Of a stretch of DNA of 64,000 nt, positions 3,092-51,691 are shown one piece after another. The notes under the pieces were generated by a model that saw only the letters and a list, made by a program, of their open reading frames with translations, made no database searches and was not told the origin of the DNA. The first letter of the stretch is position 1. Each line of letters starts with the position of its first letter. The stretch comes from Candidatus Nanoarchaeia archaeon (GTDB lineage: Archaea; Nanobdellota; Nanobdellia; Woesearchaeales; JANQNC01): NCBI GenBank assembly GCA_028279745.1, contig JANQNC010000001.1, positions 914,154 to 978,153 on the forward strand, in the 5' to 3' direction. A program made the position numbers and the translations under genes.

Positions 3092-3657
3092 AAGCTCAAG
3101 ACGTGATAAAAAAGATCGCACCCGTTTTTTTAGTACTAGTAAGTATGTTTGTTATTTTTATAGTTTTAATTATGGCTCAAATGGGAATTTTTACTTGTGC
3201 ACCTGGAGAAGTTGGTGAGTGTAATCTGTTGGATGGAGAAAAAGGCATAAGGTTATGTTCTTCTTCGGGAAAACTAAGCAAATCCTGGAGTGTATGTTTA
3301 CCTTATGAATGCAACAGACTGGACGCCACAGAGAAGTGCGAATTGACTGAAGGATTAGTTGGAATAAAAAAGTGTGTTCCTCGGGGTGAAGTTGGCAAAG
3401 TTTGGAGTGAGTGCGTTTTACACGAATGCGAGTATGACGGTAAGATCTTAGAATGTGGTTTTTCTGACGGAAGTAAAGGAATCCAGAACTGTGTGAGTTT
3501 TAAAGGAATTGGCACTAAATTAAGTGAATGTATCCTGTATGAATGTGAATATGCTTTTCAGGAAAAAGCCTGTATTTTAAGTAGTGGCTTAGAAGGCAAA
3601 CAAATCTGCCAAAGCCATAGTGGTGGCTTGGGCAAAAAATGGAGTGAATGCCAGTAA
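3088..3657 (+). CDS. Membrane-anchored cysteine-rich repeat protein (4 x ~31-aa Cys4 repeats)
   Basis: N-terminal TM (VFLVLVSMFVIFIVLIMA) followed by four repeats of pattern C-x6-G-x3-C-x(10-12)-WSEC-x3-EC; start overlaps upstream stop. Confidence 0.55.
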   Translation: MKAQDVIKKIAPVFLVLVSMFVIFIVLIMAQMGIFTCAPGEVGECNLLDGEKGIRLCSSSGKLSKSWSVCLPYECNRLDATEKCELTEGLVGIKKCVPRGEVGKVWSECVLHECEYDGKILECGFSDGSKGIQNCVSFKGIGTKLSECILYECEYAFQEKACILSSGLEGKQICQSHSGGLGKKWSECQ

Positions 3658-5951: not shown

Positions 5952-7049
5952 TCAGATAGTTTCTAATATTTCATCAGCAAGCTCTAAAGCTTCCTTACAT
6001 GCAACGTCCATATTGATGTACTTATATCTTCCAAGCCTTCCCAAGAAATAAGTGTCTTTTGTATTTTCTGCAAGCTCTTGATATTTTTTGAAAAGCTCTT
6101 TTGTTTCCTTTTGAGGTATAGGGTATGCAGGTACGCCTTCCCAAGTAGGGATTTCTTTCATAATCGTAGTCTTATCAGTCTTTTGATTCAAGAAATGTTT
6201 AAACTCGGTGATTCTAGTATAAGGAACATCAGGTCCTGGGTAGTTTACTACCGAATTTTCCTGAAATAGCTCCTTGTCTTTGGTTTCTAATATAAATTTA
6301 AGAGCTCTATATTTTAATTTTCCAAATTTGAAATCAAAAAATTCATCAATCGGGGCTGTGCAAATTAGTTTTGAATAATCTATTTTGTTTATTACATCTT
6401 TGTAATCTGTATTAAGCTTAATTTGGATGTTTGGAGATGCAATAATCTTTTTGAACATTTCGGAAAAACCATTGATTGGGATTCCTTGAAGTTCATTACT
6501 AAAATAGTAATCATCTTCATCAAATCTTACAGGAATTCTTTCAAGAACTTCTTTATCTAGATCTTCAGGATAACAATCCCATTGTTTTTTAGTGTAATAT
6601 TTAATAAAAGCATCATAAAGCTCAGTGCCAATCCTAGAAAGAATAACGTCTCGTGAATTTTTTATTATATCTATCTTTTCCCTTTTGTCCTCGAAAAACT
6701 CTTTCATACCTTCCCCGTCAAGATTAAGATTGTAAAACTTGTTGAAAGTTGTAAGATTAATTGGTACGGGGTAAAGCTTGTCTTTGTGTTTTGCAATAAC
6801 TTTATGTTTGTAATCATTAAATTTTGTAAATCTATTTAGATATTCAGAAACATCTTCGAATTTGGTGTGAAATATGTGCGGGCCGTAAGTCTGAACCATA
6901 ACTCCATTTTCGTCCAGCTTATCGCTACACTGACCACCAATATGATTCCTTTTTTCAACTATTAAAACATTAAGACCTTTTTCAGCCAGTCTCTGAGCAG
7001 CAACACAGCCAGAAAAACCAGCACCTACAATTAATACATCACACTTCAT
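5952..7049 (-). CDS. glf: UDP-galactopyranose mutase
   Basis: FAD motif VGAGFSGCV, HIGGQ, YGPHIFHT signature; ~365 aa. Confidence 0.9.
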   Translation of the reverse strand: MKCDVLIVGAGFSGCVAAQRLAEKGLNVLIVEKRNHIGGQCSDKLDENGVMVQTYGPHIFHTKFEDVSEYLNRFTKFNDYKHKVIAKHKDKLYPVPINLTTFNKFYNLNLDGEGMKEFFEDKREKIDIIKNSRDVILSRIGTELYDAFIKYYTKKQWDCYPEDLDKEVLERIPVRFDEDDYYFSNELQGIPINGFSEMFKKIIASPNIQIKLNTDYKDVINKIDYSKLICTAPIDEFFDFKFGKLKYRALKFILETKDKELFQENSVVNYPGPDVPYTRITEFKHFLNQKTDKTTIMKEIPTWEGVPAYPIPQKETKELFKKYQELAENTKDTYFLGRLGRYKYINMDVACKEALELADEILETI

Positions 7050-16101: not shown

Positions 16102-18381
16102 TTACCCCATGTAAGAAGGTCTGTCTTCCTTCATCTCTTCACCACGAGCCTTACGGAAGTGTTCACCTAATTCATTGTAAGCTTTCTCAATATCTTTAGT
16201 AACAGAAGGTTTAACCTTCTTCAAAGCATCATTAAAATGCTTCATAGAAATCTCTTTGCTTTTGATATCTTCTCTCAGTGCAGACATAGCTGCTTCTCTA
16301 CAAACTGCTTCAATATCAGCACCGACAAAACCTTCAGCCTGCTTAGCCAAATCAATAGGCTTAATATCTTTCAAAGGCATATTTGCAGTATGAACTGTGA
16401 AAATTGCTTCTCTGGTCTTAATATCTGGAACAGGAGCAAGAATGATCCTGTCAAATCTTCCAGGTCTTAACAATGCAGTATCTAAAATATCTGGTCTATT
16501 AGTAGAGGCAATAACAATCACGTCATTCATCTCCTCCAAACCATCCATCTCAGTCAAAATTTGGTTGACAACACGTTCAGTAACATGACTGTCTTGAGAA
16601 AGACCTCTTCTTGGAGCGATTGAATCTATTTCGTCAAAGAAAACGATTGTTGGAGAGGTTTGTCTAGCTTTTTCAAACACTTTTCTAACAGCTTTTTCAG
16701 ATTCACCGACCCATTTACTTAACATCTCAGGACCTTTAACTAAAATAAAGTTAGCATTTGTCTCGTTAGCAACAGCTTTTGCCAACAAAGTCTTACCAGT
16801 GCCTGGTGCGCCGTAGATAAGAACGCCTCTTGGAGGTCTAACACCCATCCTCTTGAATGCTTCAGGAGATTTTAGAGGCCAGTCAACAGCTTCCTTAAGC
16901 TCCTGCTTTAACTCTTCTAATCCGCCAACATCAGACCATTTTACACTAGGAACTTCAACTAAGAACTCTCGCATAGCACTTGGCCTAACAACTTTTAGCG
17001 CGTTTTTGAAATCTTTAGCCATGATAACAAGTTTTTCTAGCAATTCTTTTGAGATTGTAGTTTCATCATCTAACTTGATATCTGGAAGTATTCTTCTGAT
17101 GACAGACATAGCAGCTTCTTTAGTTAAAGCTTCTAAATCAGCACCAACAAAACCATAAGTGATGTTAGCAATACTCTCTAAGTTAACTTTTTTACTTAAA
17201 GGCATGTTTCTGGTATGGATCTTAAGAACATTTAGTCTTCCTTGTCTGTCAGGAACACCGATCTCTAACTCTCTATCAAATCTCCCAGGTCTTCTCAACG
17301 CAGGATCTAACGAGTTAGGCATGTTAGTTGCAGCAATAACGACAACTTTGCCTCTACTTTTCAGGCCATCCATCAAAGCTAATAGTTGAGCAACAACTCT
17401 CTTCTCAACTTCACCCTTAGTCTCTTCTCTTTTGGATGCAATTGCATCAAGTTCGTCAATGAAAATGATCGATGGAGAATTTTTCTCAGCATCCTCAAAA
17501 ATCTTTCTGATATTCTCTTCAGACTGTCCGTAATATTTTGACATGATTTCAGGACCATTGATAACTGTAAAGTTTGCATGTGTCTCATTTGCAACAGCTT
17601 TTGCCAAAAGAGTCTTTCCTGTTCCTGGCGGGCCTGAAAGAAGAACTCCTTTTGGAGGCTCAACACCAAGTCTTTCAAAAATCTCAGGATGTTTAAGAGG
17701 TAACTCAACCATCTCTCTAACCATCTTGATCTCGTTATCTAAGCCACCAATGTCTTCGTAAGATGTATCAGGGACTGTTTCTTCAGCAACCTCGACAGCT
17801 TCGGGTTTGTAATCAATTTCAGTAGATTCAGTAACTATGATCGGACCTTTAGCATCAGTGTTGATTATAATGAATTTTAGTTCTCCAAAGACACCAAATC
17901 CTGAATTTCCATTTTCATCAAATACATTAAAAATATCATCAAAGAAAGGACTGCCACTCATACTTGTCTTTCTTGAGCCAGCACCACCTAAACTAACTAA
18001 GTCACCTTTAACAACTGCTCGCCCTAAAAGGCCTCTTTTGAAAAAAATTGGTGAAGCTTTGATCATAACATCTTTTCTAGCAGGAGCAATTGTAACTTTC
18101 TTAGCTTCTTTGACTTCAGATTTTTTTACATGTACAGTTTCACTGATAGAAGTGTTAGCGTTTCTTCTCGTAATACCGTCCATACGGATAATGTTTAAAC
18201 CCATATCTCCAGGATAAGCTCTGTCAACAATTGCAACAGTTACTCTTTCACCTTTGATCTCAACAATGTCTCCAGGTCTTACTCCTATCTGTTGCATAAA
18301 ATTAGTGTCAATTCTAATGATGCCTTTATTTACATCATCTTGGACTGCTTCCGCAACCTTTAATTCCACTTCTTTTGGCAT
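16102..18381 (-). CDS. cdc48: CDC48/VCP-like AAA+ ATPase (two AAA domains)
   Basis: N-domain, two Walker A motifs GPPGTGKT and GAPGTGKT, two second-region-of-homology motifs; 759 aa. Confidence 0.95.
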
Positions 18382-18458
18382 GGTTCACGTGTTTAATGGA
18401 TGCTATATAAAGGTTTTTATGGGTTTAAAAGGGAGAATTTAATGTTTTTAGAAGTGAA

Positions 18459-18503
18459 GCGAGCGCCCGGACGTTAAATAAGGGTTCCACCCTTATCAAC
18501 CTG
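18459..18503 (-). repeat. Partial duplicate of tRNA-Cys 3' end (14-16 nt) preceded by 26-nt hairpin direct repeat copy B
   Basis: + strand aagcgagcgcccggac (18457-18472) identical to 18552-18567; ataagggttccacccttatcaacctg (18478-18503) matches 18625-18650 with 1 mismatch. Confidence 0.8.
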
Positions 18504-18552
18504 GATTGTGGTACTTCACTTTGTTCAGTACCACGCAGACTTTTAGAAACAA

Positions 18553-18624
18553 AGCGAGCGCCCGGACTTGAACCGGGGATCAGAGGGTTGCAGCCTCTTG
18601 CCTTAGCCGCTTGGCCACGCCCGC
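18553..18624 (-). tRNA. tRNA-Cys (anticodon GCA), intronless
   Basis: Manual fold of reverse complement: GCGGGCG-TG-GCC-AAGCGGCTAA-GGC-A-AGAGG-CTGCAAC-CCTCT-GATCC-CCGGG-TTCAAGT-CCCGG-CGCTCGC-T; U73 discriminator typical of tRNA-Cys. Confidence 0.85.
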
Positions 18625-18650
18625 ATAAGGGTTACACCCTTATCAACCTG
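18625..18650 (-). repeat. 26-nt hairpin direct repeat copy A immediately 5' of tRNA-Cys
   Basis: minus strand CAGGTTGATAAGGGTGTAACCCTTAT; stem ATAAGGG/CCCTTAT. Confidence 0.8.
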
Positions 18651-18728
18651 TAAGGGGTTTCGCTACGCTCAAGCCCCTGGGTACTGTTGGACTTGATGTG
18701 CTGTAGCACTTCAGTTGTGAAAATAAAA

Positions 18729-18869
18729 CGGACCTGGAGGGACTTTCGATGCATAAGCATATTCGAACCCTCGGTCTACAGCTCTCTGCGACGCCAGGCG
18801 CTGAGCCAGCGAATCTATGATTCTAGCGTGTAGAAGGCTGTCGCCCTATCCAGACTAGGCTACAGGTCC
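18729..18869 (-). tRNA. tRNA-Arg (anticodon TCT) with two introns (anticodon loop 47 nt; T-loop 59/60 19 nt)
   Basis: Manual fold of reverse complement: GGACCTG-TA-GCCT-AGTCTGGATA-GGGC-G-ACAGC-CTTCTA^[47 nt]^A-GCTGT-AGACC-GAGGG-TTCGAA^[19 nt]^T-CCCTC-CAGGTCC-G. Confidence 0.65.
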
Positions 18870-18967
18870 ATTGTAAATTGCAGAATCAGGACATTGTTTA
18901 TAAAAGTTATGTACTTTTACCTATATAAAGAAAAGGTCAGAGGGAGCTGACCTTTTCTAACTAGCAA

Positions 18968-32213: not shown

Positions 32214-32219
32214 TTGAAA

Positions 32220-33386
32220 ATGGGAAAAGATACAGCAGATTACGAAGAAAGTGAAGAGATTGCGATAGCATCAGGGAAAAAAGCATTAGAAAGAGCGCCT
32301 TGGTTATTCAACAGAGTGAATCCAAAAACAAAAGGATTCTTTGTAGAACTAAGAGATAATCAAATAATACACCCAAACTATTCCTCTGTACATTGTGTTG
32401 ATGGAAACGGAACAAAACTATTTCTTAGTGCGTGGTCAGATAATTATAGAAAAGCAATGACTGATGGAATTGCAATGAATGCAAATGACATGGCAACAAT
32501 AATAAATGCAAAACCAAGCGAGTTGGAACTTTATATTGCATGTCAGCAAGGAGTTGAAGTAAATTATATGGGTCAGATAATGGATGGTTTAGTTGATGCG
32601 GTAGAAAGGATAAGAATACCAAATGCTCCGTGGGACATGAATATAGGAAAGATGGAAACTGCATCGGTGGATGAAATGATCTCGCTAGGAGTAAAAAATA
32701 AAGGGGTTGACTTTGGGATAGTGATGGTTGGTTACATAGCAAAAGATGAGATACCAAACTTAAATCCAAAACCAGGACAACCGATTGTTGGAGTAAGTTC
32801 AACTGGGCTGCACAGTAACGGGTTTACTGGAGCAAGACATGTACTTTTCATATATGACCCAGCGCTAGAATATAGGGAAGAATGGAAGGGACAATACCGT
32901 GGTAGATTCAAGCCAGATGACAAACCAGACATCCTTGAAGGAAAAACAGTGATGGAAGCATTGCAAGAACCAACTGCTCTTTACATGAAAGAAGCAGCAT
33001 TAGTGGGGCAAAGCTTCGACACAAAGGAGATATATGGTGTGAACATAACGGGGAATGGTTTGATGAATTTCAATAGAGTTGGAGAAGGAGTGTCATTCGA
33101 AATAACAGACCCGATAGAAATGCTTCCAATACACAAATTATTAGCACAAGAATCAGGATGGGATCCTGAAACATCCTACAAAAAACAAAACAATGGGATG
33201 GGTTTTGCTTATATTGCGCCTGATATGGAAACAGCAGAAGGAATTGTTAAGTTAGTGAACGAGGCGGGTGAAAATAGAGCAAAGATTGTTGGAGAAGTCA
33301 GAGACAACAAAGACAAAGAGATAAAAACAACAATCCACAAGCCATACGAAGGAGAACCGATAACCTTTACAGGTTATAACGGTTAA
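32220..33386 (+). CDS. purM: Phosphoribosylformylglycinamidine cyclo-ligase (AIR synthase), long form
   Basis: VDGNGTK and GVSSTGLHSNGF motifs of PurM; ATG 32220 preferred over in-frame TTG 32214. Confidence 0.8.
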   Translation: MGKDTADYEESEEIAIASGKKALERAPWLFNRVNPKTKGFFVELRDNQIIHPNYSSVHCVDGNGTKLFLSAWSDNYRKAMTDGIAMNANDMATIINAKPSELELYIACQQGVEVNYMGQIMDGLVDAVERIRIPNAPWDMNIGKMETASVDEMISLGVKNKGVDFGIVMVGYIAKDEIPNLNPKPGQPIVGVSSTGLHSNGFTGARHVLFIYDPALEYREEWKGQYRGRFKPDDKPDILEGKTVMEALQEPTALYMKEAALVGQSFDTKEIYGVNITGNGLMNFNRVGEGVSFEITDPIEMLPIHKLLAQESGWDPETSYKKQNNGMGFAYIAPDMETAEGIVKLVNEAGENRAKIVGEVRDNKDKEIKTTIHKPYEGEPITFTGYNG

Positions 33387-39420: not shown

Positions 39421-39797
39421 AAGCACAGACATCAACAGAGTTTGTTCTGTTCATAAGCGTAGTATTCTTAGTGACTTTGATAGTATTATCATCTATTCTA
39501 TATTACTTAAGAGAGTACACTTCAGAAAAAGAGTATAACGTACTAAAAAAACAGGCAGAAGTAATAAAAAACGAATTATACCTTGCATCAACAGTAGAAA
39601 ATGGGTATTTGAGAATGTTCCAGATAAAATCTCCACAAGACGACATAGTCTTTAACTTTACACAAGAAAACAATTCATTAATACTGACTTCAAGACGTCA
39701 GCAATTCATAGCAGATCTGGGCGTTAAGATAAACGGAACATTAGTGATGGGAAATAACACAATAAGAAACATAGAAGGTGCAGTCCATGTCAACTAA
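39405..39797 (+). CDS. Class III signal-peptide pilin-like protein
   Basis: MGRRLKAQTSTEFVLFISVVFLVTLIVL; overlaps upstream gene. Confidence 0.5.
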   Translation: MGRRLKAQTSTEFVLFISVVFLVTLIVLSSILYYLREYTSEKEYNVLKKQAEVIKNELYLASTVENGYLRMFQIKSPQDDIVFNFTQENNSLILTSRRQQFIADLGVKINGTLVMGNNTIRNIEGAVHVN

Positions 39798-40875
39798 AAA
39801 CAAGAAAGCACAAGTATGGACAACAGACTTTTCACTTAGCCTTTTGGTGTTTGTGATAGCAATAGTACTTTTCGGCAGAGCAATAACAAATCTTTCATCG
39901 TCAACAGGAGAAAACATAGACGACTTAGTGAGTGAAGGAAGATTAGTGACAGATTCTTTAACATCGGAAGGGTACCCTTCAAACTGGACCGTTGCAAACG
40001 TAAAACGAGTTGGGTTGATGGGGCAAGGCAAATTGTTGGAGAATGACAAATTACAGAACATGCTCAATATGACTTACCAAGATGCGCGAGAGATATTAGG
40101 GACAAAGTATGATTATTTCTTATTCTTCATAGACGAAAAAGGAGAACTAGTAAACGTATCAGAAAACTTGGGTGTGGGACATCCTAATGTGTACGCGATA
40201 GGATCAAGAAAAGACACAAATACCATAGCATACTACCAAAAAGAAAACTTGCTTCTAGATGAGATGCAAGAGCTTAATGCAACAGTATTTACAGGAGGAT
40301 CAAAATCACAGTTCATAGGCAACATAACAAACTATGAGGTTCTAGTGATGGAAGATCCACACTTTTCAGACATAGAGATAGACGTGGTTGAAGAGTATGT
40401 TTTAGAGGGGGGCAAACTAATAATCACAGAACACATAACAGACACAAGCGGAACATACTTTGGAGTGAATTTTGTACATAGGAGCATGAACGCAGGAAAC
40501 GAGCTGGCAACAGTGATAAGCGCAGATTCAAATATGCCTTTCTCAATAGGTGAAACATACACGCCAAGAGAGTATCCTTATATAGATGCTGCACATATAG
40601 ACAAGATAGCAACATACCCTGATGGAAAAGTGGCGATGGCAACCTTCGGATATGGAAGCGGGAAAGTTTATTATCTAAGCGATTCAGATAATCCAGACTA
40701 TTTAGGAGATTTTGAAGAAGAGATAAAAACAGCAACAACAAATTTTTTACTTGAAGAAAGACCAGAAAATTATGTAGAATTAAACCAGATACAATATAAC
40801 AAACTAGTCACGATAACAAGACTTATAGTCATGAATGGAAAAGTAACAAGGATGGTGCTATACATATGGGACTAA
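39778..40875 (+). CDS. Large class III signal-peptide pilin-like protein
   Basis: KKAQVWTTDFSLSLLVFVIAIVLF N-terminus; 365 aa; overlaps neighbours. Confidence 0.5.
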   Translation: MQSMSTKNKKAQVWTTDFSLSLLVFVIAIVLFGRAITNLSSSTGENIDDLVSEGRLVTDSLTSEGYPSNWTVANVKRVGLMGQGKLLENDKLQNMLNMTYQDAREILGTKYDYFLFFIDEKGELVNVSENLGVGHPNVYAIGSRKDTNTIAYYQKENLLLDEMQELNATVFTGGSKSQFIGNITNYEVLVMEDPHFSDIEIDVVEEYVLEGGKLIITEHITDTSGTYFGVNFVHRSMNAGNELATVISADSNMPFSIGETYTPREYPYIDAAHIDKIATYPDGKVAMATFGYGSGKVYYLSDSDNPDYLGDFEEEIKTATTNFLLEERPENYVELNQIQYNKLVTITRLIVMNGKVTRMVLYIWD

Positions 40876-43589
40876 AGAAAGGATACTATTTCAGCGTTGA
40901 TGCCATACTTGGATTAAGTATAGTGTTGGTTGGGATACTTATCATGGGATCTTTTTATTCAAACCAGCAGGAGACAACCCACTTAACATATGTTGCAGAC
41001 GATCTAATAGAGGTTTTATCTACTGTACAGATAAGTGATGTGAACAACACATATGTACAAGAACTTATCGCAACAGGCCATATAACAAACACAAATAGTT
41101 CTTTACTGGAACAAATAACAAAACTTTGGGTGGAAGGAAAACATACAAGAGCAAGCGAGATGGCTCGAAACATAACCGAACAGATAATTCCTGACAACAT
41201 CATGTTTAGCATACTTGTGGATGGAGGTGTAGTCTATGAGAGAACAAACACAAGCTCAAACGTACTTGTACTGAGTAAAGAGCTAGTCTCAGGAATGGAA
41301 ACAGGAAAAGCACCAAAAGGATCAACCGCAAGAATGTATCTTACAGGAATAAAATCAAAAGAGACAAACGCTTACGTATACTTTGGCGGATTTACAGGAC
41401 AAGGAAACGTGACAATGTCCATAACAGACTTACCAAGTGATGCAAACATAACTGAGATGGAAATAGAAGGTGACTTTGGAGCAAGTTTCTGGCTGGAAAT
41501 AAATGAACAGTTATGTGGAAGTTTTGTACCTGTTGCTGGAGAGCTAGCGGCAGATGCGTGGGACATAACAAGTTGTAACAATCTAGTTGATGTGGGCAGC
41601 AATGTACAAAATAATTTTTCAATATCTTTTACGGGAGAGATGGAGGAGAAATATATAGGTGGTGGTTTCATAAGGATGAAATACACAACCGAAACACTAT
41701 ACGAAAATAAGACCTTAGGAAATCAAAAAATTTATCTTCCTGGGATAGACGGAATCATAAACTTATTCTCGGGGATAAACATCCCCGGAACATTAAACCA
41801 GATGAACTTACACTTACATTATTTCTCAAACCACTCAGACTTTTCAGTACCTTTATTCTTCTCATTTGGAGACGTGCAAGTCTATAACGACACAAACAGC
41901 ACAACACCACAAACAATAGACATAGATGATGCACAACTTTCATCTTTGCTTGACTATGGTGAATTAAGCAACACCACAGTACCGATAAGGTTTGGGTTTT
42001 CAAATGTAAGTTACTTGACAGAGTTTGTAGGATTAGCAGATGTAATGTTAGTAAGTGACTTATCAGGAAGCATGGAATTCTGTATGAATAGAAATGACGG
42101 CTATGAAACAGACTGGGTATGGACAAACTTTAACTTCCCAGATCAATCAGGAGCGGCAGCGTGCGGAAGAAAATGGGAGAGGGACGGTAATTGTCCAAGC
42201 AATGCCCCAAGAAGGATAGACGTAGCAAAAAATGCAAGCAAAGCATTTGTAGAAGCATTATTTAACACAACAGGAAACAGGATAGGCACAGCAGAATATT
42301 CTGCATTTTACTCATCAGGAACTTATGTACAACAACCCTGCGGAACAAATATACAAGAATTCCCTGGAGGGATAGTAACACAAGAAAGTCTAACAACAGA
42401 TCAAATAGTCTTAGAAAACCACATAGATGACATGGCAGTATGGTATGGAACTTGCATATGCTGTGGAGTAAATAGAGGTATGCAAGTATTACAAGCAAAC
42501 AGCAACGCATCAAGAATAGGATCCATAGTTGTAATGACTGATGGAGATGCAAACCAAGAATGCCCTGAACAAGGTAACACAGGAGATCTGGATGGAGATG
42601 GAAGTTCAGATACAGCAAGAGATGATGCAGTGCAAGCAGCACTTGATGCCTGTGCTTTGAACTATTCAGTATACACAGTTGGATTTGGTCCAGGAGCATA
42701 CAACGGGACAATGATCGCGATGGCATGTAATGGAGGAAGTTACTATTCTGCATCAGACATGGACACACTTATAGATGCATACACTGCAATAGCAAACCAG
42801 ATAAGAGTTGCAACAATGCAAGCGCAAACGATAGTTGTGTCTGGAAACAATATAACATCATCACAAATATATCCCGATTCTTACATAGAAATAAACTACA
42901 CTCCAACATATAATCCAGTAGAGTTTGGAGAGATATCTGTAACTTTACAATCAGACCAATTTCCAAACTGTTCAGGAAGCTGGTATATCTCTGATGATCT
43001 TACTATAGTAGACTCAAGCGCCACTTCATATTCAGCACAGCACTGGACAGACCTTGTAAGAGTAAACAACCAAACAAGCTTTAATCTGAGCTATTTCGGA
43101 ACAGACTATACTTCGTTAGGAGATCCTTATCTAGCATATGTCAAGCCAGAAAGTTTCATAACAGGGATTAATAATATCACAATAGTGTCTGCAGATGAGA
43201 TAGCAAACGATACTTTCTGTTCAACAAACAACTCATTGATATATACTGCAATGGCAAAATCTTCAGTCTCATACGGAACAGTATTGGAAAGAGAGGAAGG
43301 TTGTAATTGGTTTGTAGAGTTTGAAGATGGAGGCAATGCAACATTAGCAGTGCCGCAAGGATATGCAGGAAATAAAACTTGCAGTTACACCGGATCTTCG
43401 ATAAGTTATGATACAGATGATTCATATGATGATGCGATGTACAGATTGTTAGAAGGGCTGGATTTTGATGATGATGGAAGAACATACTTTAATTTTGATC
43501 AAAGCGATATAGGGTTTAATGTAATTACGATTTCAGAAGTACCTTACATGTGGGGGCCGACAGGGGTCGAGGTGAGAACATGGCAATGA
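40866..43589 (+). CDS. Pilus-associated giant protein with von Willebrand factor A domain (candidate tip adhesin)
   Basis: Prepilin-like N-terminus GLKKGYYFSVDAILGLSIVLVGILI; MIDAS DVMLVSDLSGSME and downstream VVMTDGDANQ vWA motifs; 907 aa. Confidence 0.65.
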   Translation: MGLKKGYYFSVDAILGLSIVLVGILIMGSFYSNQQETTHLTYVADDLIEVLSTVQISDVNNTYVQELIATGHITNTNSSLLEQITKLWVEGKHTRASEMARNITEQIIPDNIMFSILVDGGVVYERTNTSSNVLVLSKELVSGMETGKAPKGSTARMYLTGIKSKETNAYVYFGGFTGQGNVTMSITDLPSDANITEMEIEGDFGASFWLEINEQLCGSFVPVAGELAADAWDITSCNNLVDVGSNVQNNFSISFTGEMEEKYIGGGFIRMKYTTETLYENKTLGNQKIYLPGIDGIINLFSGINIPGTLNQMNLHLHYFSNHSDFSVPLFFSFGDVQVYNDTNSTTPQTIDIDDAQLSSLLDYGELSNTTVPIRFGFSNVSYLTEFVGLADVMLVSDLSGSMEFCMNRNDGYETDWVWTNFNFPDQSGAAACGRKWERDGNCPSNAPRRIDVAKNASKAFVEALFNTTGNRIGTAEYSAFYSSGTYVQQPCGTNIQEFPGGIVTQESLTTDQIVLENHIDDMAVWYGTCICCGVNRGMQVLQANSNASRIGSIVVMTDGDANQECPEQGNTGDLDGDGSSDTARDDAVQAALDACALNYSVYTVGFGPGAYNGTMIAMACNGGSYYSASDMDTLIDAYTAIANQIRVATMQAQTIVVSGNNITSSQIYPDSYIEINYTPTYNPVEFGEISVTLQSDQFPNCSGSWYISDDLTIVDSSATSYSAQHWTDLVRVNNQTSFNLSYFGTDYTSLGDPYLAYVKPESFITGINNITIVSADEIANDTFCSTNNSLIYTAMAKSSVSYGTVLEREEGCNWFVEFEDGGNATLAVPQGYAGNKTCSYTGSSISYDTDDSYDDAMYRLLEGLDFDDDGRTYFNFDQSDIGFNVITISEVPYMWGPTGVEVRTWQ

Positions 43590-44518
43590 TGAATAGGAAA
43601 GCGGTGTTCTATACAGTAGTTGGAGTTATAATGGTTTTTACACTTCTACTTTTATTCATTGTTTATGAAAAAGAACCCTCTATAGATAAGACATCAGTAA
43701 TATTGACAAGAGTAAAAACAACAAATAACTTTTTAGAAAACATAAATAGAGATCTTGAAAGAGCATTGCAGATATCAAGCATGAGGGCATCACTATCTTT
43801 GTTAGAACATATAACAACAACTGGAGATTTTGTAGACGATTCAAAAGCAAGGTATGAAGAAGCGATAGTTGATGGAACTGTAAATGGAAACCAGATGATT
43901 TTGATGGAGAATACAACATTCGTAGATTGGATTAATAAAATAGAATCCGAAGCAAATAGAATTGGGGTGATGACAAACATAACTCTGATTGTTGTAAGTG
44001 TATACCAAGAAGATCCTTGGCATGTAAAGAGCACAGCAAACATAACTATGCGAGTAAGAGATTCAAAAGACACTGCAGAATGGACACAGACAAAACAGAT
44101 GCAGACAAAAATACCTATTGTTGGGTTAGAGGATCCTCTTTACTTAGTCAATACTTATGGGAGAGTGGCGAACATAATTAATGTAACCCCTTATGAAGGA
44201 GATTATGTTCAAGGAAGCAATGTTGCAAACTTAACAATACATCTTAACAGTTCACTTTATACAAACTCAACGTTAGCACCATCTTTCTTAATGAGATTAG
44301 AAAACGATTTAGGAAGTTCACCTTTTGGGATAGAGAGCATGGTAAACTTAAACAAGTTAGAAGAACAAGGGATCACAACTAAAAACAGAAGTAACATAGA
44401 CTATATCTACTTTGGATTTGGTTCCACAACAAACTATAAAGTGACTGGATTACCGACGTGGTTCCATATAGATGATGGCCATGTCAATAGATATCAAGTT
44501 CAGAATCTAACATACTAA
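43580..44518 (+). CDS. Class III signal-peptide pilin-like protein
   Basis: MAMMNRKAVFYTVVGVIMVFTLLLLFIV; ATG 43580 after GGTGA; ATGA overlap with upstream stop. Confidence 0.45.
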   Translation: MAMMNRKAVFYTVVGVIMVFTLLLLFIVYEKEPSIDKTSVILTRVKTTNNFLENINRDLERALQISSMRASLSLLEHITTTGDFVDDSKARYEEAIVDGTVNGNQMILMENTTFVDWINKIESEANRIGVMTNITLIVVSVYQEDPWHVKSTANITMRVRDSKDTAEWTQTKQMQTKIPIVGLEDPLYLVNTYGRVANIINVTPYEGDYVQGSNVANLTIHLNSSLYTNSTLAPSFLMRLENDLGSSPFGIESMVNLNKLEEQGITTKNRSNIDYIYFGFGSTTNYKVTGLPTWFHIDDGHVNRYQVQNLTY

Positions 44519-50698: not shown

Positions 50699-51691
50699 GT
50701 GGAGGATGATAAGATGAAAAAAATAATCTTAATGGTGCTGGTTGCAATTATGAGCATTAGTTCTGTTTTTGCAGCAATAGCTGGGTGCGATCCTTTTCTT
50801 TTAGGTTCTTGTACTACAAGATGTAATGATATGATTTCGCCTACAGGTACAGCGGTAGGGTGGAATTTGAATGTTCAAGGTAATAACTTTGTTTGTCAGA
50901 GCACAGGTGCTACTTATACGGGTGGGCTTTTTGATATTGATTCAGATATAGCTGATGGGGGATGGTGTAACTCGTTGTCTGTTCCTAGGGTGAATGAGGG
51001 TCCGTGTATGCATGTTTACTATTCTGAAACTGAAAGTAATGTTTATTGCGCGGGCTATGAAAGAGCGGGTGAGCCAGTTACGTTGGCGAATGTAGCGACA
51101 CATTGTAGGGTGTCAGGTGTTCCTGATTACTCTGCTTTTGATTTTAGCGATCCTTTCTTTGCAGGAACTGGTGCACCTGGTGGAATAACATTAATAAGCG
51201 ACTGTGATCCTGCTCTTCCAGGATCTTGTACTGCAAGATGTAATGATATAATGTCTCCTACAGGCACAGCAAATATTTGGAGTTTGAACCTTCAATCTGG
51301 TTTTGTTTGTCAGAGCACAGGTGCTACTTATACAGGCGGGCCTTTCGATATTGATTCAGACATAGGTGATAGTAGATGGTGTAACTCATTATCTGTTCCA
51401 AGGGTGAATGAGGGTCCATGTATGCATGCATACTACTCCGAAACTGAGAGTAACGTTTATTGCGCAAGCTATAAAAGAGCGGGTGAACCAGTTACGTTGG
51501 CAAATGCAGCAACACACTGTAGGGTATCGGGTGTTGAGGACTATTCAGCTTTTGATTTTAGCGATCCTTTCTTCGCAGGACATTTAGTAGACCAAGTACA
51601 GGGTGTACCTGAGATTAGTGTAGCATCTTCAATAATTGCATTGATAGCAGTTCTTGCAGTAGTCGGAGTTATAGCGGTTAGAAAGCGCTAG
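50699..51691 (+). CDS. Secreted, C-terminally membrane-anchored protein made of two ~140-aa Cys-rich tandem repeats
   Basis: Signal MKKIILMVLVAIMSISSVFAA; repeat 1 CDPFLLGSC…DFSDPFFAG and repeat 2 CDPALPGSC…DFSDPFFAG ~80% identical; C-terminal TM SIIALIAVLAVVGVIAVRKR. Confidence 0.55.
   Translation: MEDDKMKKIILMVLVAIMSISSVFAAIAGCDPFLLGSCTTRCNDMISPTGTAVGWNLNVQGNNFVCQSTGATYTGGLFDIDSDIADGGWCNSLSVPRVNEGPCMHVYYSETESNVYCAGYERAGEPVTLANVATHCRVSGVPDYSAFDFSDPFFAGTGAPGGITLISDCDPALPGSCTARCNDIMSPTGTANIWSLNLQSGFVCQSTGATYTGGPFDIDSDIGDSRWCNSLSVPRVNEGPCMHAYYSETESNVYCASYKRAGEPVTLANAATHCRVSGVEDYSAFDFSDPFFAGHLVDQVQGVPEISVASSIIALIAVLAVVGVIAVRKR

Follow-up and report, generated by a model that had tools for sequence, protein, structure and literature searches.

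A 64,000-nucleotide stretch of a Candidatus Nanoarchaeia archaeon genome (contig JANQNC010000001.1, forward-strand positions 914,154 to 978,153; hereafter the window) carries a tRNA-Cys gene whose 3′ end recurs a short distance downstream. We propose that the two copies of this end probably flank an insertion, a non-coding module of about 68 nt (18540–18473) that sits just behind the intact tRNA-Cys gene with a flank resembling a target duplication. The module consists of an upstream stem-loop (SL1), usually present, followed by a second hairpin (hp2), about 55–70 nt in all, and is apparently a member of an undescribed family of small two-hairpin modules found at the ends of stable-RNA genes in Woesearchaeota and Nanoarchaeota. 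Its window copies and the sequences beside them are as follows.

18625–18678, minus strand: module copy 1, between tRNA-Arg and tRNA-Cys (sequence, repeats, fold)
18553–18624, minus strand: intact tRNA-Cys(GCA) gene (ARAGORN; Rfam tRNA model, 57.6 bits, model positions 1–71)
18541–18567, minus strand: Y, the upstream copy of the duplicated segment (24/27 identical to Y′)
18473–18540, minus strand: module copy 2, the putative inserted element, 68 nt (sequence, repeats, fold, comparison with locus L003)
18446–18472, minus strand: Y′, the downstream displaced copy, GTCCGGGCGCTCGCT followed by TCACTTCTAAAA (repeat comparison)

An initial annotation had described a tRNA-Cys gene lying between two copies of a 26-nt hairpin and followed by a repeat of its own 3′ end, and all of these elements were confirmed on the minus strand. 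Copy 1 of the 26-mer (CAGGTTGATAAGGGTGTAACCCTTAT, 18650–18625) abuts position 1 of the tRNA, and copy 2 (18503–18478) differs from it by a single mismatch. A 49-nt spacer separates the tRNA from copy 2, which is followed by TTAAC (18477–18473) and then by a 16-mer, GTCCGGGCGCTCGCTT (18472–18457), identical to the sequence at 18567–18552. Within the 64 kb both the 26-mer and the 16-mer were found only at this locus, and shuffled sequences never gave two matches to either (0/100 for each). The duplicated 16-mer is real, and only its length had been understated: the repeat spans 32 nt at 84% identity (18446–18477 versus 18541–18572) and takes in 12 nt of trailer (TTCTAAAA...), so that the tRNA end and its trailer were duplicated as one and recur 95 nt downstream. 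The upstream segment, Y, contains the final 15 nt of tRNA-Cys (G59 to U73) and 12 nt of trailer (TTGTTTCTAAAA), and belongs to the working gene, a 72-nt tRNA with discriminator U73, an A13–A22 mismatch and a G4–U69 pair. The downstream segment, Y′, is a pseudo 3′ end lacking a 5′ partner, and neither ARAGORN nor Rfam at a permissive threshold called a tRNA at 18446–18472. A split or permuted tRNA is disfavoured as a reading of this arrangement, the complete tRNA-Cys lying directly upstream. The inverted repeat once thought to enclose the whole unit (AAGTGAAG/CTTCACTT, 18521–18514 and 18459–18452) is only 8 nt long and at chance level, and it surrounds the second hairpin and second 3′ end alone, with one arm falling within the SL1 loop of module copy 2. 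We estimate that chance alone would give a 650-nt region about three perfect inverted repeats of 8 nt; 12 inverted-repeat pairs of at least 8 nt were listed there.

Module copy 2 runs from GTCTGC through SL1 (18534–18508, GTGGTACT-GAACAAAGTGA-AGTACCAC), a linker AATC and the 26-nt unit to the tail TTAAC, and is predicted to fold into two hairpins (−21.2 kcal/mol, z = −3.6). Module copy 1 likewise contains SL1 (18677–18653, GGGGCTT-GAGCGTAGCGA-AACCCC), a linker TTA and the 26-nt unit. The two trailer copies (GCTTTGTTTC and GCTTCACTTC) differ at three adjacent bases, and the two versions are complementary to separate, neighbouring parts of the copy-2 SL1 loop (AACAAAG and AAGTGAAG; 18508–18534 against 18541–18557 and 18446–18462). 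The longest complementary run is 11 nt, which 0/300 shuffles reached. Pairing of this kind was discarded as a family trait, being significant in window copy 2 only and absent from the other loci.

Comparison with other tRNA-Cys loci identifies both window copies of the module as additions. A scan of metagenome contigs for the anticodon arm of tRNA-Cys, in which the window and locus L004 do not differ, recovered 46 loci, 39 of them new and distinct (41 distinct loci in all); hp2 was present at 0/39. In about half of the tRNA-Cys loci tRNA-Arg(TCT) lies upstream, at an estimated spacing of mostly 0–57 nt and below 10 nt in several, and the corresponding spacer in the window is 104 nt long and contains module copy 1. 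Since the 39 new tRNA-Cys loci are free of hp2 and the Arg–Cys spacing is usually short, both modules have been added to a conserved gene pair. The upstream member of the pair was unannotated.

18729–18869, minus strand: tRNA-Arg(TCT) with two introns (in silico splicing, fold, comparison with locus L001)

The exons of this gene (18869–18831, 18783–18761 and 18741–18729) are separated by a 47-nt intron at position 37/38 (18830–18784) and a 19-nt intron in the T-loop (18760–18742). ARAGORN and Rfam at its gathering threshold both missed the gene, and a permissive Rfam search returned a partial match of 14.2 bits. In silico splicing gives a 75-mer that forms a perfect Arg(TCT) cloverleaf and agrees at 65/75 positions with the L001 gene, which is uninterrupted. 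A small hairpin (ATGCTTATGCAT) makes up its T-loop intron and has a repeat of the T-loop on its flanks (TTCGAAT, then the hairpin, then TCGAAAGT). A 14-nt sequence upstream of tRNA-Arg (ACTTTTATAAACAA, 18894–18907) is 13/14 complementary to TTGTTTCTAAAAGT directly after tRNA-Cys (18539–18552, minus strand) and could form a leader–trailer processing stem of an Arg–Cys precursor; both sequences are AT-rich and the significance of the match was estimated only roughly.

Several other tRNA-Cys loci show related features. At L082 the tRNA-Cys 3′ end (ATCCCTGTCTCGCCTT) is repeated 107 nt downstream around an unrelated insert that lacks hp2, and at L067 and L104 the intact gene has a second, heavily interrupted tRNA-Cys-like copy downstream; tRNA 3′ ends are thus duplicated outside the hp2 family as well. 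The L089 gene has a short T-loop intron flanked by a GTGCAA repeat, and the L095 gene a T-loop intron of about 47 nt and a trailer (TTTAACTTCTAAAAA) that resembles that of the window.

To define the spread of the module, we ran the pattern GATAAGGGTNNAACCCTTAT over one representative genome per species and obtained 53 genome loci, 37 archaeal and 16 bacterial. According to the labels given by the submitters of the metagenome-assembled genomes (MAGs), most archaeal loci belong to Woesearchaeota, Nanoarchaeota or Nanobdellota and six to Methanosarcinales. One locus, L031 (Iainarchaeum), is a chance palindrome; the remaining 36 hold 38 hairpin copies, all of which share an asymmetric 5′ flank of G (T in one copy), G, any base and T. 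The bacterial matches have other loop sequences without the conserved flank, and their number fits the chance estimate of about 17. In archaeal MAGs the hairpin stands beside many different tRNAs.

The hp2 unit, CAGGTTGATAAGGGTGNAACCCTTAT, is the near-invariant half of the module. The hairpin itself, GGTTGATAAGGGTGNAACCCTTAT, is a perfect 8-3-8 palindrome with an 8-bp helix free of bulges, and 22 of its 24 positions are invariant in 26 aligned copies, an invariance owed in part to the exact search pattern, which fixes 16 of the 24 positions and would leave diverged copies unretrieved. The flank was not specified by the pattern and so provides independent evidence (two G's, the final T and the G after it are constant). 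It keeps its asymmetry whatever direction the neighbouring gene takes, demonstrating that the module has a polarity of its own. Genome-specific changes beside hp2 are common to the copies within one genome (GGGCT in JACPII01; GGAT and GTTCAC in JACPCA01). Pairing between module and T-loop, for which other loci allow only 5 bp (GGGTT/AATCC), was rejected: JACPII01 has GGGCT with AATCC unchanged, and no compensating change accompanies GGGCT or GGAT. Rfam contains no family that matches the module at gathering or permissive thresholds (E-values up to 10), and literature searches by topic and by exact sequence string found no description of it; the longer strings occur nowhere in the searchable literature. 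Because the hp2 sequence and the SL1 structure are conserved in place, the module probably has a conserved protein partner that binds it as RNA or as single-stranded DNA. The 26-mer was rejected as a promoter, the hairpin abutting the tRNA +1 position and no AT-rich box lying about −26 from the tRNA start, and C/D-box and H/ACA small RNAs were set aside in the absence of a box C/D consensus, an ACA box or a pseudouridylation pocket. Readings as CRISPR-like repeats, integron attC sites, parS- or dif-like sites and uptake sequences were discarded on grounds of spacing, copy number and motif, without dedicated tests.

The stem of SL1 varies in sequence from copy to copy while its pairing is kept. 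In a gap-free alignment of fixed-length segments from 17 copies (a whole-module MAFFT alignment had put gaps within SL1), all 10 pairs are changed on both sides, and 85.9% of cells are paired compared with 55.3% in shuffles (0/500 reach the observed value) and 31–48% with a slid partner strand. The loop has the form GA-(R Y)-NNN-(R Y)-GA with tandem G·A, and its inner two pairs covary (GC/GC, AC/GT, AT/AT). Hairpins of the SL1 type number 22 in 307 kb of loci and window, against 0–3 in shuffles. Kink-turns and K-loops of the L7Ae-binding type have tandem sheared G·A pairs beside a 3-nt bulge or a terminal loop, respectively; SL1, a possible motif of this type, has an invariant GA...GA around a covarying 2-bp mini-helix and no 3-nt bulge. 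At about 3620–3790 of L017 an SL1-type hairpin (CAAATCCGAGCGTAGCGAGGATTTG) lies within a region of about 130 nt closed by a long terminal stem (GGGAAACCCAACAACAATGG ... CCATTGTTGTTGTTGGGTTTC); this region, which has no Rfam match at E-values up to 0.1, may be a structured RNA that shares the SL1 motif.

Relationships among SL1 copies connect the window to other genomes. The SL1 of module copy 2 is 25/27 identical, with one compensatory pair change, to that of the module after tRNA-Leu in L003, from another genome, and the tails correspond (TTAAC in the window, GTTCAC in L003). The SL1 of copy 1 resembles that of the first module after tRNA-Arg(TCT) in L001. The module thus has subfamilies common to several genomes and tRNA species, and the two window hairpins, which are unlike each other, fall into different ones. 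These relationships bear on a purely local origin, in which tRNA-Cys with its 26-nt leader and its trailer would have been duplicated in tandem and 52 nt (positions 1 to about 53) then lost from the second copy. The repeat spacings agree with such an event, the leader repeats lying 147 nt apart and the 3′ repeats 95 nt apart, a 52-nt difference equal to the missing tRNA body. However, two SL1 hairpins of different subfamilies are ill-suited to recent tandem copying, it is the L003 module and not copy 1 that copy 2 nearly matches, and the same leader hairpin and SL1, with the same result, recur beside many tRNAs of other genomes. We regard a local duplication as highly improbable.

Across the family, a stable-RNA gene end abutted by a module is usually duplicated on the far side of that module. 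The commonest arrangement among the hits, which is also that of the window, is seen at about 20 loci and places on one strand a complete tRNA with a T-rich trailer, then SL1 and hp2, then a constant tail of a few bases (GTGGG, GTGGT or GCGGG; GTTCAC/TTAAC in one subfamily) and a second copy of the T-loop-to-3′-end of the same tRNA, usually with some trailer. This order occurs with tRNAs for Arg, Cys, Gln, His, Pro, Lys, Glu, Gly, Leu and Ile. The duplicated stretch after tRNAs measures 14–65 nt and is often perfect or nearly so (20/20, 23/23, 22/22, 39/40, and 65/65 in a tandem array); over all stable-RNA settings it measures 11–65 nt, and possibly about 90 in L013. Duplications are also found at the 3′ end of 16S rRNA in L045, where GGATCACCTCCTTTTCTTTTTTT is repeated (23/23; gene end at 6005 by Rfam), at the 5′ end of an antisense tRNA in L015, L016 and L038, and over 11 nt of an antisense tRNA 3′ end in L011. 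Modules occur as tandem arrays in L001 and L044. Modules at different tRNAs can be homologous from the first base after the discriminator, as in L014/L027 and L003/L042 (two genomes). A long duplication is lacking for window copy 1 and in L028, where the module stands directly before a complete tRNA.

A variant with the loop GCA and the opposite orientation, here called class B, occupies two further settings. In L002, L018, L020, L022 and L046 it makes up roughly the initial 25 nt of T-loop introns, whose other end bears only a short, imperfect T-loop repeat. In L005, L019, L026 and L051 it lies at the end of a protein gene, and the opposite-strand open reading frame (ORF) stops at a TAA inside the hairpin stem. 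The L019 ORF that ends in this way encodes a complete TFS/RpoM-like protein, the L005 hairpin lies between two ORFs with T2SSF domains, and in JACPNF01 tandem ATCAACCTGCACGAAAA repeats follow a class-B hairpin.

Individual copies show further peculiarities. In one MAG (JAQBWB01; L009 and L024) two contigs end and begin inside a module and duplication at tRNA-Lys, with hp2 present and SL1 absent, and the contig breaks appear to have been caused by the repeat. In Archaeon GW2011_AR15 (L021, CP010425.1, 5457–5486) the pseudo 3′ end of tRNA-Pro (...TAACCCCACCATTT) has an encoded CCA that the working copy (...TAACCCCATTTAACC) lacks, and this pseudo-end could derive from a mature tRNA.

The duplicated 3′ end had earlier been read as an attachment (att) site or integration scar. 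What holds in that reading is that the duplication marks an insertion at a tRNA gene and not a second gene. An integrase-derived, possibly cis-mobilisable remnant would require an element that carried the tRNA-Cys 3′ end in its attP and was deleted to about 70 nt, leaving attL and attR. Integration targeted to tRNA genes typically leaves direct repeats of the tRNA 3′ end starting in the T-loop, which is the geometry seen here; the tandem arrays of L001 and L044 resemble accretion at one att site, and the hp2 palindrome is of a kind that a recombinase could bind. Yet Pfam searches of the 39 window ORFs of at least 230 aa revealed metabolic and housekeeping genes only, with no integrase, transposase or reverse transcriptase; five ORFs (365, 907, 322, 330 and 390 aa; 39778–44518, 50699–51691 and 32214–33386) matched no Pfam family at E-values up to 1e-6. 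The repeats enclose only 68 nt, and the inserted element, with its second hairpin, is still in place. Nor does the 16-mer link the locus to integrase or viral genes, as had been envisaged: viral contigs gave seven matches to the 16-mer (in GC-rich phage DNA) and four to the hairpin, all in unrelated coding DNA, none with a tRNA or GGTT flank, and we read these as chance. One attP cannot serve many tRNAs each with its own end duplicated; at least 10 tRNAs, a 16S end and antisense tRNA ends would each need a separate attP lineage, and random deletion would not repeatedly leave a remnant of the same length, about 60–90 nt. An att scar is for these reasons very unlikely. The contrary picture, of a generic terminator beside many unrelated genes with no integrase-linked copy, agrees only in part: the hairpin is widespread and has no integrase link, but most copies stand at stable-RNA gene ends, and it is not a generic terminator.

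Whether Y′ has a function is informed by its fate. Identity between Y′ and the last 16 nt of the tRNA ranges from 16/16 down to 9/16 across loci in which hp2 is unchanged, and in L013, L014, L034 and L040 Y′ is no longer complementary to one or other of T-stem and acceptor strand although the module is intact. The T-loop part of Y′ is always altered, with changes at T-loop positions 55–57 directly 5′ of Y′ (TTCGAAT to TGGGAAT, TTCAAAT to TGGTAAT). Decay of Y′ beside a stable hp2 argues against its use as a second exon, as half of a split tRNA or as a guide, and fits a by-product of insertion that later decays. A tRNA-like fold of module and Y′ together was also rejected, as the 5′ flank does not covary with the Y′ acceptor strand (L014 and L027 have the same flank and different Y′).

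These observations have to be weighed against a functional cassette, in which the stretch from Y to the module end would act as a long T-loop intron or as a fail-safe target for processing or termination, and Y′ would serve as an alternative 3′ exon on read-through. Such a cassette would account for the invariance of hp2 and covariation of SL1, for the reverse-complemented hairpin that starts genuine T-loop introns in the five class-B tRNA loci, for the many loci in which Y′ is 100% identical, trailer included, and for Y′ following a compensatory acceptor-stem change between L016 and L038; in folding, the 5′ strand of the tRNA pairs equally well with Y′. On the other side, by inspection no bulge-helix-bulge motif can be drawn at either junction, although the local splicing endonuclease may accept relaxed motifs, given that class-B copies sit inside tRNAs that must be spliced. 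Furthermore, the alteration of the T-loop part in every case and the lost complementarity in the four decayed loci speak against an exon, 39/41 tRNA-Cys loci do without the module, and an alternative 3′ exon has no meaning at antisense tRNA and 16S ends. We judge the cassette unlikely. The related idea of a pre-tRNA processing signal is possible for the module and unlikely for the duplicated 3′ end.

The altered T-loop positions also bear on a guide-RNA gene, in which the module would supply the scaffold and Y′ the 3′ guide, in the manner of a TnpB omega-RNA, directed against the tRNA 3′ end beside a target-adjacent motif (TAM) in the T-loop. As in such genes, a conserved, structured scaffold precedes a 3′ segment that varies and is a copy of DNA nearby, and systematic mutation of the T-loop 55–57 'TAM' at Y′ would avoid self-targeting. 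Omega-RNAs of archaeal IS200/IS605 elements have been reported (PMC12558985). By contrast, the intact Y only 95 nt away keeps both 'TAM' and target, so that the locus would target itself, and the scaffold would measure only about 55–70 nt. Pfam scans of window ORFs found no TnpB or IscB, no Rfam family matches the module, Y′ decays in several loci and class-B copies have no duplicated 'guide'. A guide-RNA gene consequently strikes us as far-fetched.

We therefore return to insertion as the preferred explanation. At or after insertion, 27 nt across the gene end (tRNA positions 59–73 and 12 nt of trailer) would have been placed on both sides of the module, with the upstream Y completing the working tRNA and the downstream Y′ left as a functionless pseudo-end. 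The second module copy, presumably older or of a different subfamily, would have entered the tRNA-Arg(TCT)/tRNA-Cys spacer, and its presence there makes tRNA-Cys look bracketed by the hairpin. Entry may have involved two staggered breaks or, alternatively, a transcript copied by target priming. Of the breaks, one would fall within the gene, mostly in the T-loop, and there the T-loop-like tail of the module (GTTMAC, or GYGGG before AATCC) could provide microhomology; the other would lie at a variable distance beyond the gene end, and fill-in would yield a duplication of variable length. Breaks lying close together would instead leave a T-loop intron between short T-loop repeats, as in class B, and the T-loop intron of the window tRNA-Arg has the same look. 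Variable duplication length, a variable 5′ boundary of the insert, the L014/L027 and L003/L042 homologies and the tandem arrays are all as target-primed RNA copying would give, and a DNA-level process is equally possible. It is a tentative further step, and one we think doubtful, to regard the module as a mobile element of RNA or DNA, active now or until recently, specific to the archaeal clade and targeting stable-RNA gene ends and T-loops, through which one process would yield either a pseudo 3′ end or a T-loop intron.

Several observations weigh against insertion. Window Pfam scans identified no mobilising enzyme, and no autonomous parent element was found. Duplication length is far more variable than known DNA transposases give, and SL1 differs greatly among copies of one genome, with no sign of recent bursts. 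That hp2 stays the same in deeply diverged genomes whereas Y′ decays points to a function at the level of the host and not to a purely selfish element, and the compensatory changes in SL1 could partly reflect template switching in DNA palindromes and not selection. Class-B copies at protein-gene ends (L005, L019, L026, L051) have no flanking duplication; duplication is thus not universal to the 26-nt unit, which may have more than one way of arising. Lastly, the co-change of Y′ and tRNA in the orthologous loci L016 and L038 calls for gene conversion, re-insertion or selection on Y′.

Known repeat and intron systems each share part of this behaviour. Like MITEs (miniature inverted-repeat transposable elements), repetitive extragenic palindromes (REPs and the derived REPINs) and palindrome elements derived from IS200/IS605, the module is short, non-coding, multi-copy and built of hairpins, lies between genes or at gene ends in either orientation and has genome-specific variants. 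Unlike MITEs and other DNA-transposon derivatives, it has no terminal inverted repeats, combines two different hairpins and is flanked by a duplication of 11–65 nt that is not of fixed length. IS200/IS605 elements, to our knowledge, make no target duplication, whereas class-A modules carry duplications, each module has one hp2, and the window lacks TnpB. Compared with REPs and REPINs, its copy number is low (2 in 64 kb) and its copies lie mostly at stable-RNA gene ends; REPs are species-specific, whereas the hairpin core is near-identical across deeply diverged genomes, among the copies that the search could find. With att sites of the SSV and pNOB8 types it shares a duplication from the T-loop through the 3′ end, with a working gene restored on one side and a pseudo-end on the other, but here about 70 nt of conserved non-coding hairpins lie between the repeats, no integrase is present, and many tRNAs, 16S rRNA and antisense ends are affected.

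Two further comparisons concern introns and retroelements. In Thermoproteales non-canonical tRNA introns have been transposed, and Nanoarchaeum and Caldivirga have split or permuted tRNA genes. There, as here, related sequences occupy the same tRNA position in different tRNAs; the hosts here are DPANN archaea with intron-rich tRNAs, and the reverse-complemented hairpin starts T-loop introns. Nevertheless, the window tRNA-Cys is uninterrupted and offers nothing to splice, the 3′ fragment always lies beside a complete gene with the same end, and inspection found neither a bulge-helix-bulge motif nor a complementary leader and trailer. Target-primed retrotransposition of short interspersed nuclear elements (SINEs) and other non-long-terminal-repeat (non-LTR) elements, together with the eukaryotic retroelements aimed at tRNA genes (Ty3 and the Dictyostelium TRE elements), offers the parallels of variable duplications, a variable 5′ boundary and microhomology of the 3′ tail. 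The upstream trailer, too, was apparently carried along (L014/L027; L003/L042), and tRNA flanks would be safe sites. The window, however, has no reverse transcriptase and the module no poly(A) or simple-repeat tail, so this is an analogy of mechanism and not of membership; we know of no SINE-like target-primed elements of this kind in archaea.

How archaea came by non-canonical tRNA introns and fragmented tRNA genes is a long-standing question. Here one conserved sequence occurs in three states (beside an intact tRNA with a duplicated end, as a T-loop intron, and at the end of an rRNA or protein gene), which makes insertion and its consequences directly comparable, and the module family may potentially explain how T-loop introns arise. 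If the module is mobile, it would offer a directly observable mechanism for the gain of non-canonical archaeal tRNA introns and would imply a conserved protein that recognises the near-invariant hairpin. There are practical consequences as well: duplicated ends break assemblies, as in JAQBWB01, and can pass for integration scars. Standard tRNA finders miss multi-intron tRNAs in such genomes, which bears on the 'missing' tRNAs reported in Nanobdellota (bioRxiv 10.64898/2026.05.13.725050).

Around the window locus, the archaeal neighbour genes identified by Pfam encode Cdc48/VAT, NIF3, GatD, RNase J and PCNA. The gene immediately downstream of Y′ is the following.

16102–18381, minus strand: cdc48/VAT AAA ATPase gene (Pfam AAA, CDC48_N, CDC48_2)

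Its product has its closest homologues, about 73% identical and so too distant for a comparison of synteny, in Woesearchaeota and Nanoarchaeota MAGs, and its TATA-like box (CTTTATATAG, 18412–18403) lies outside the element. Elsewhere, at 3600–3900 of L042, the tRNA directly after the tRNA-Glu pseudo-end lacks an acceptor 3′ strand past the T-arm (Rfam model positions 8–63 only). Beyond it come two SL1-type hairpins, which lie on opposite strands, and inverted repeats (CAAAACTCGC/GCGAGTTTTG); the region may be a larger insertion or an intron.

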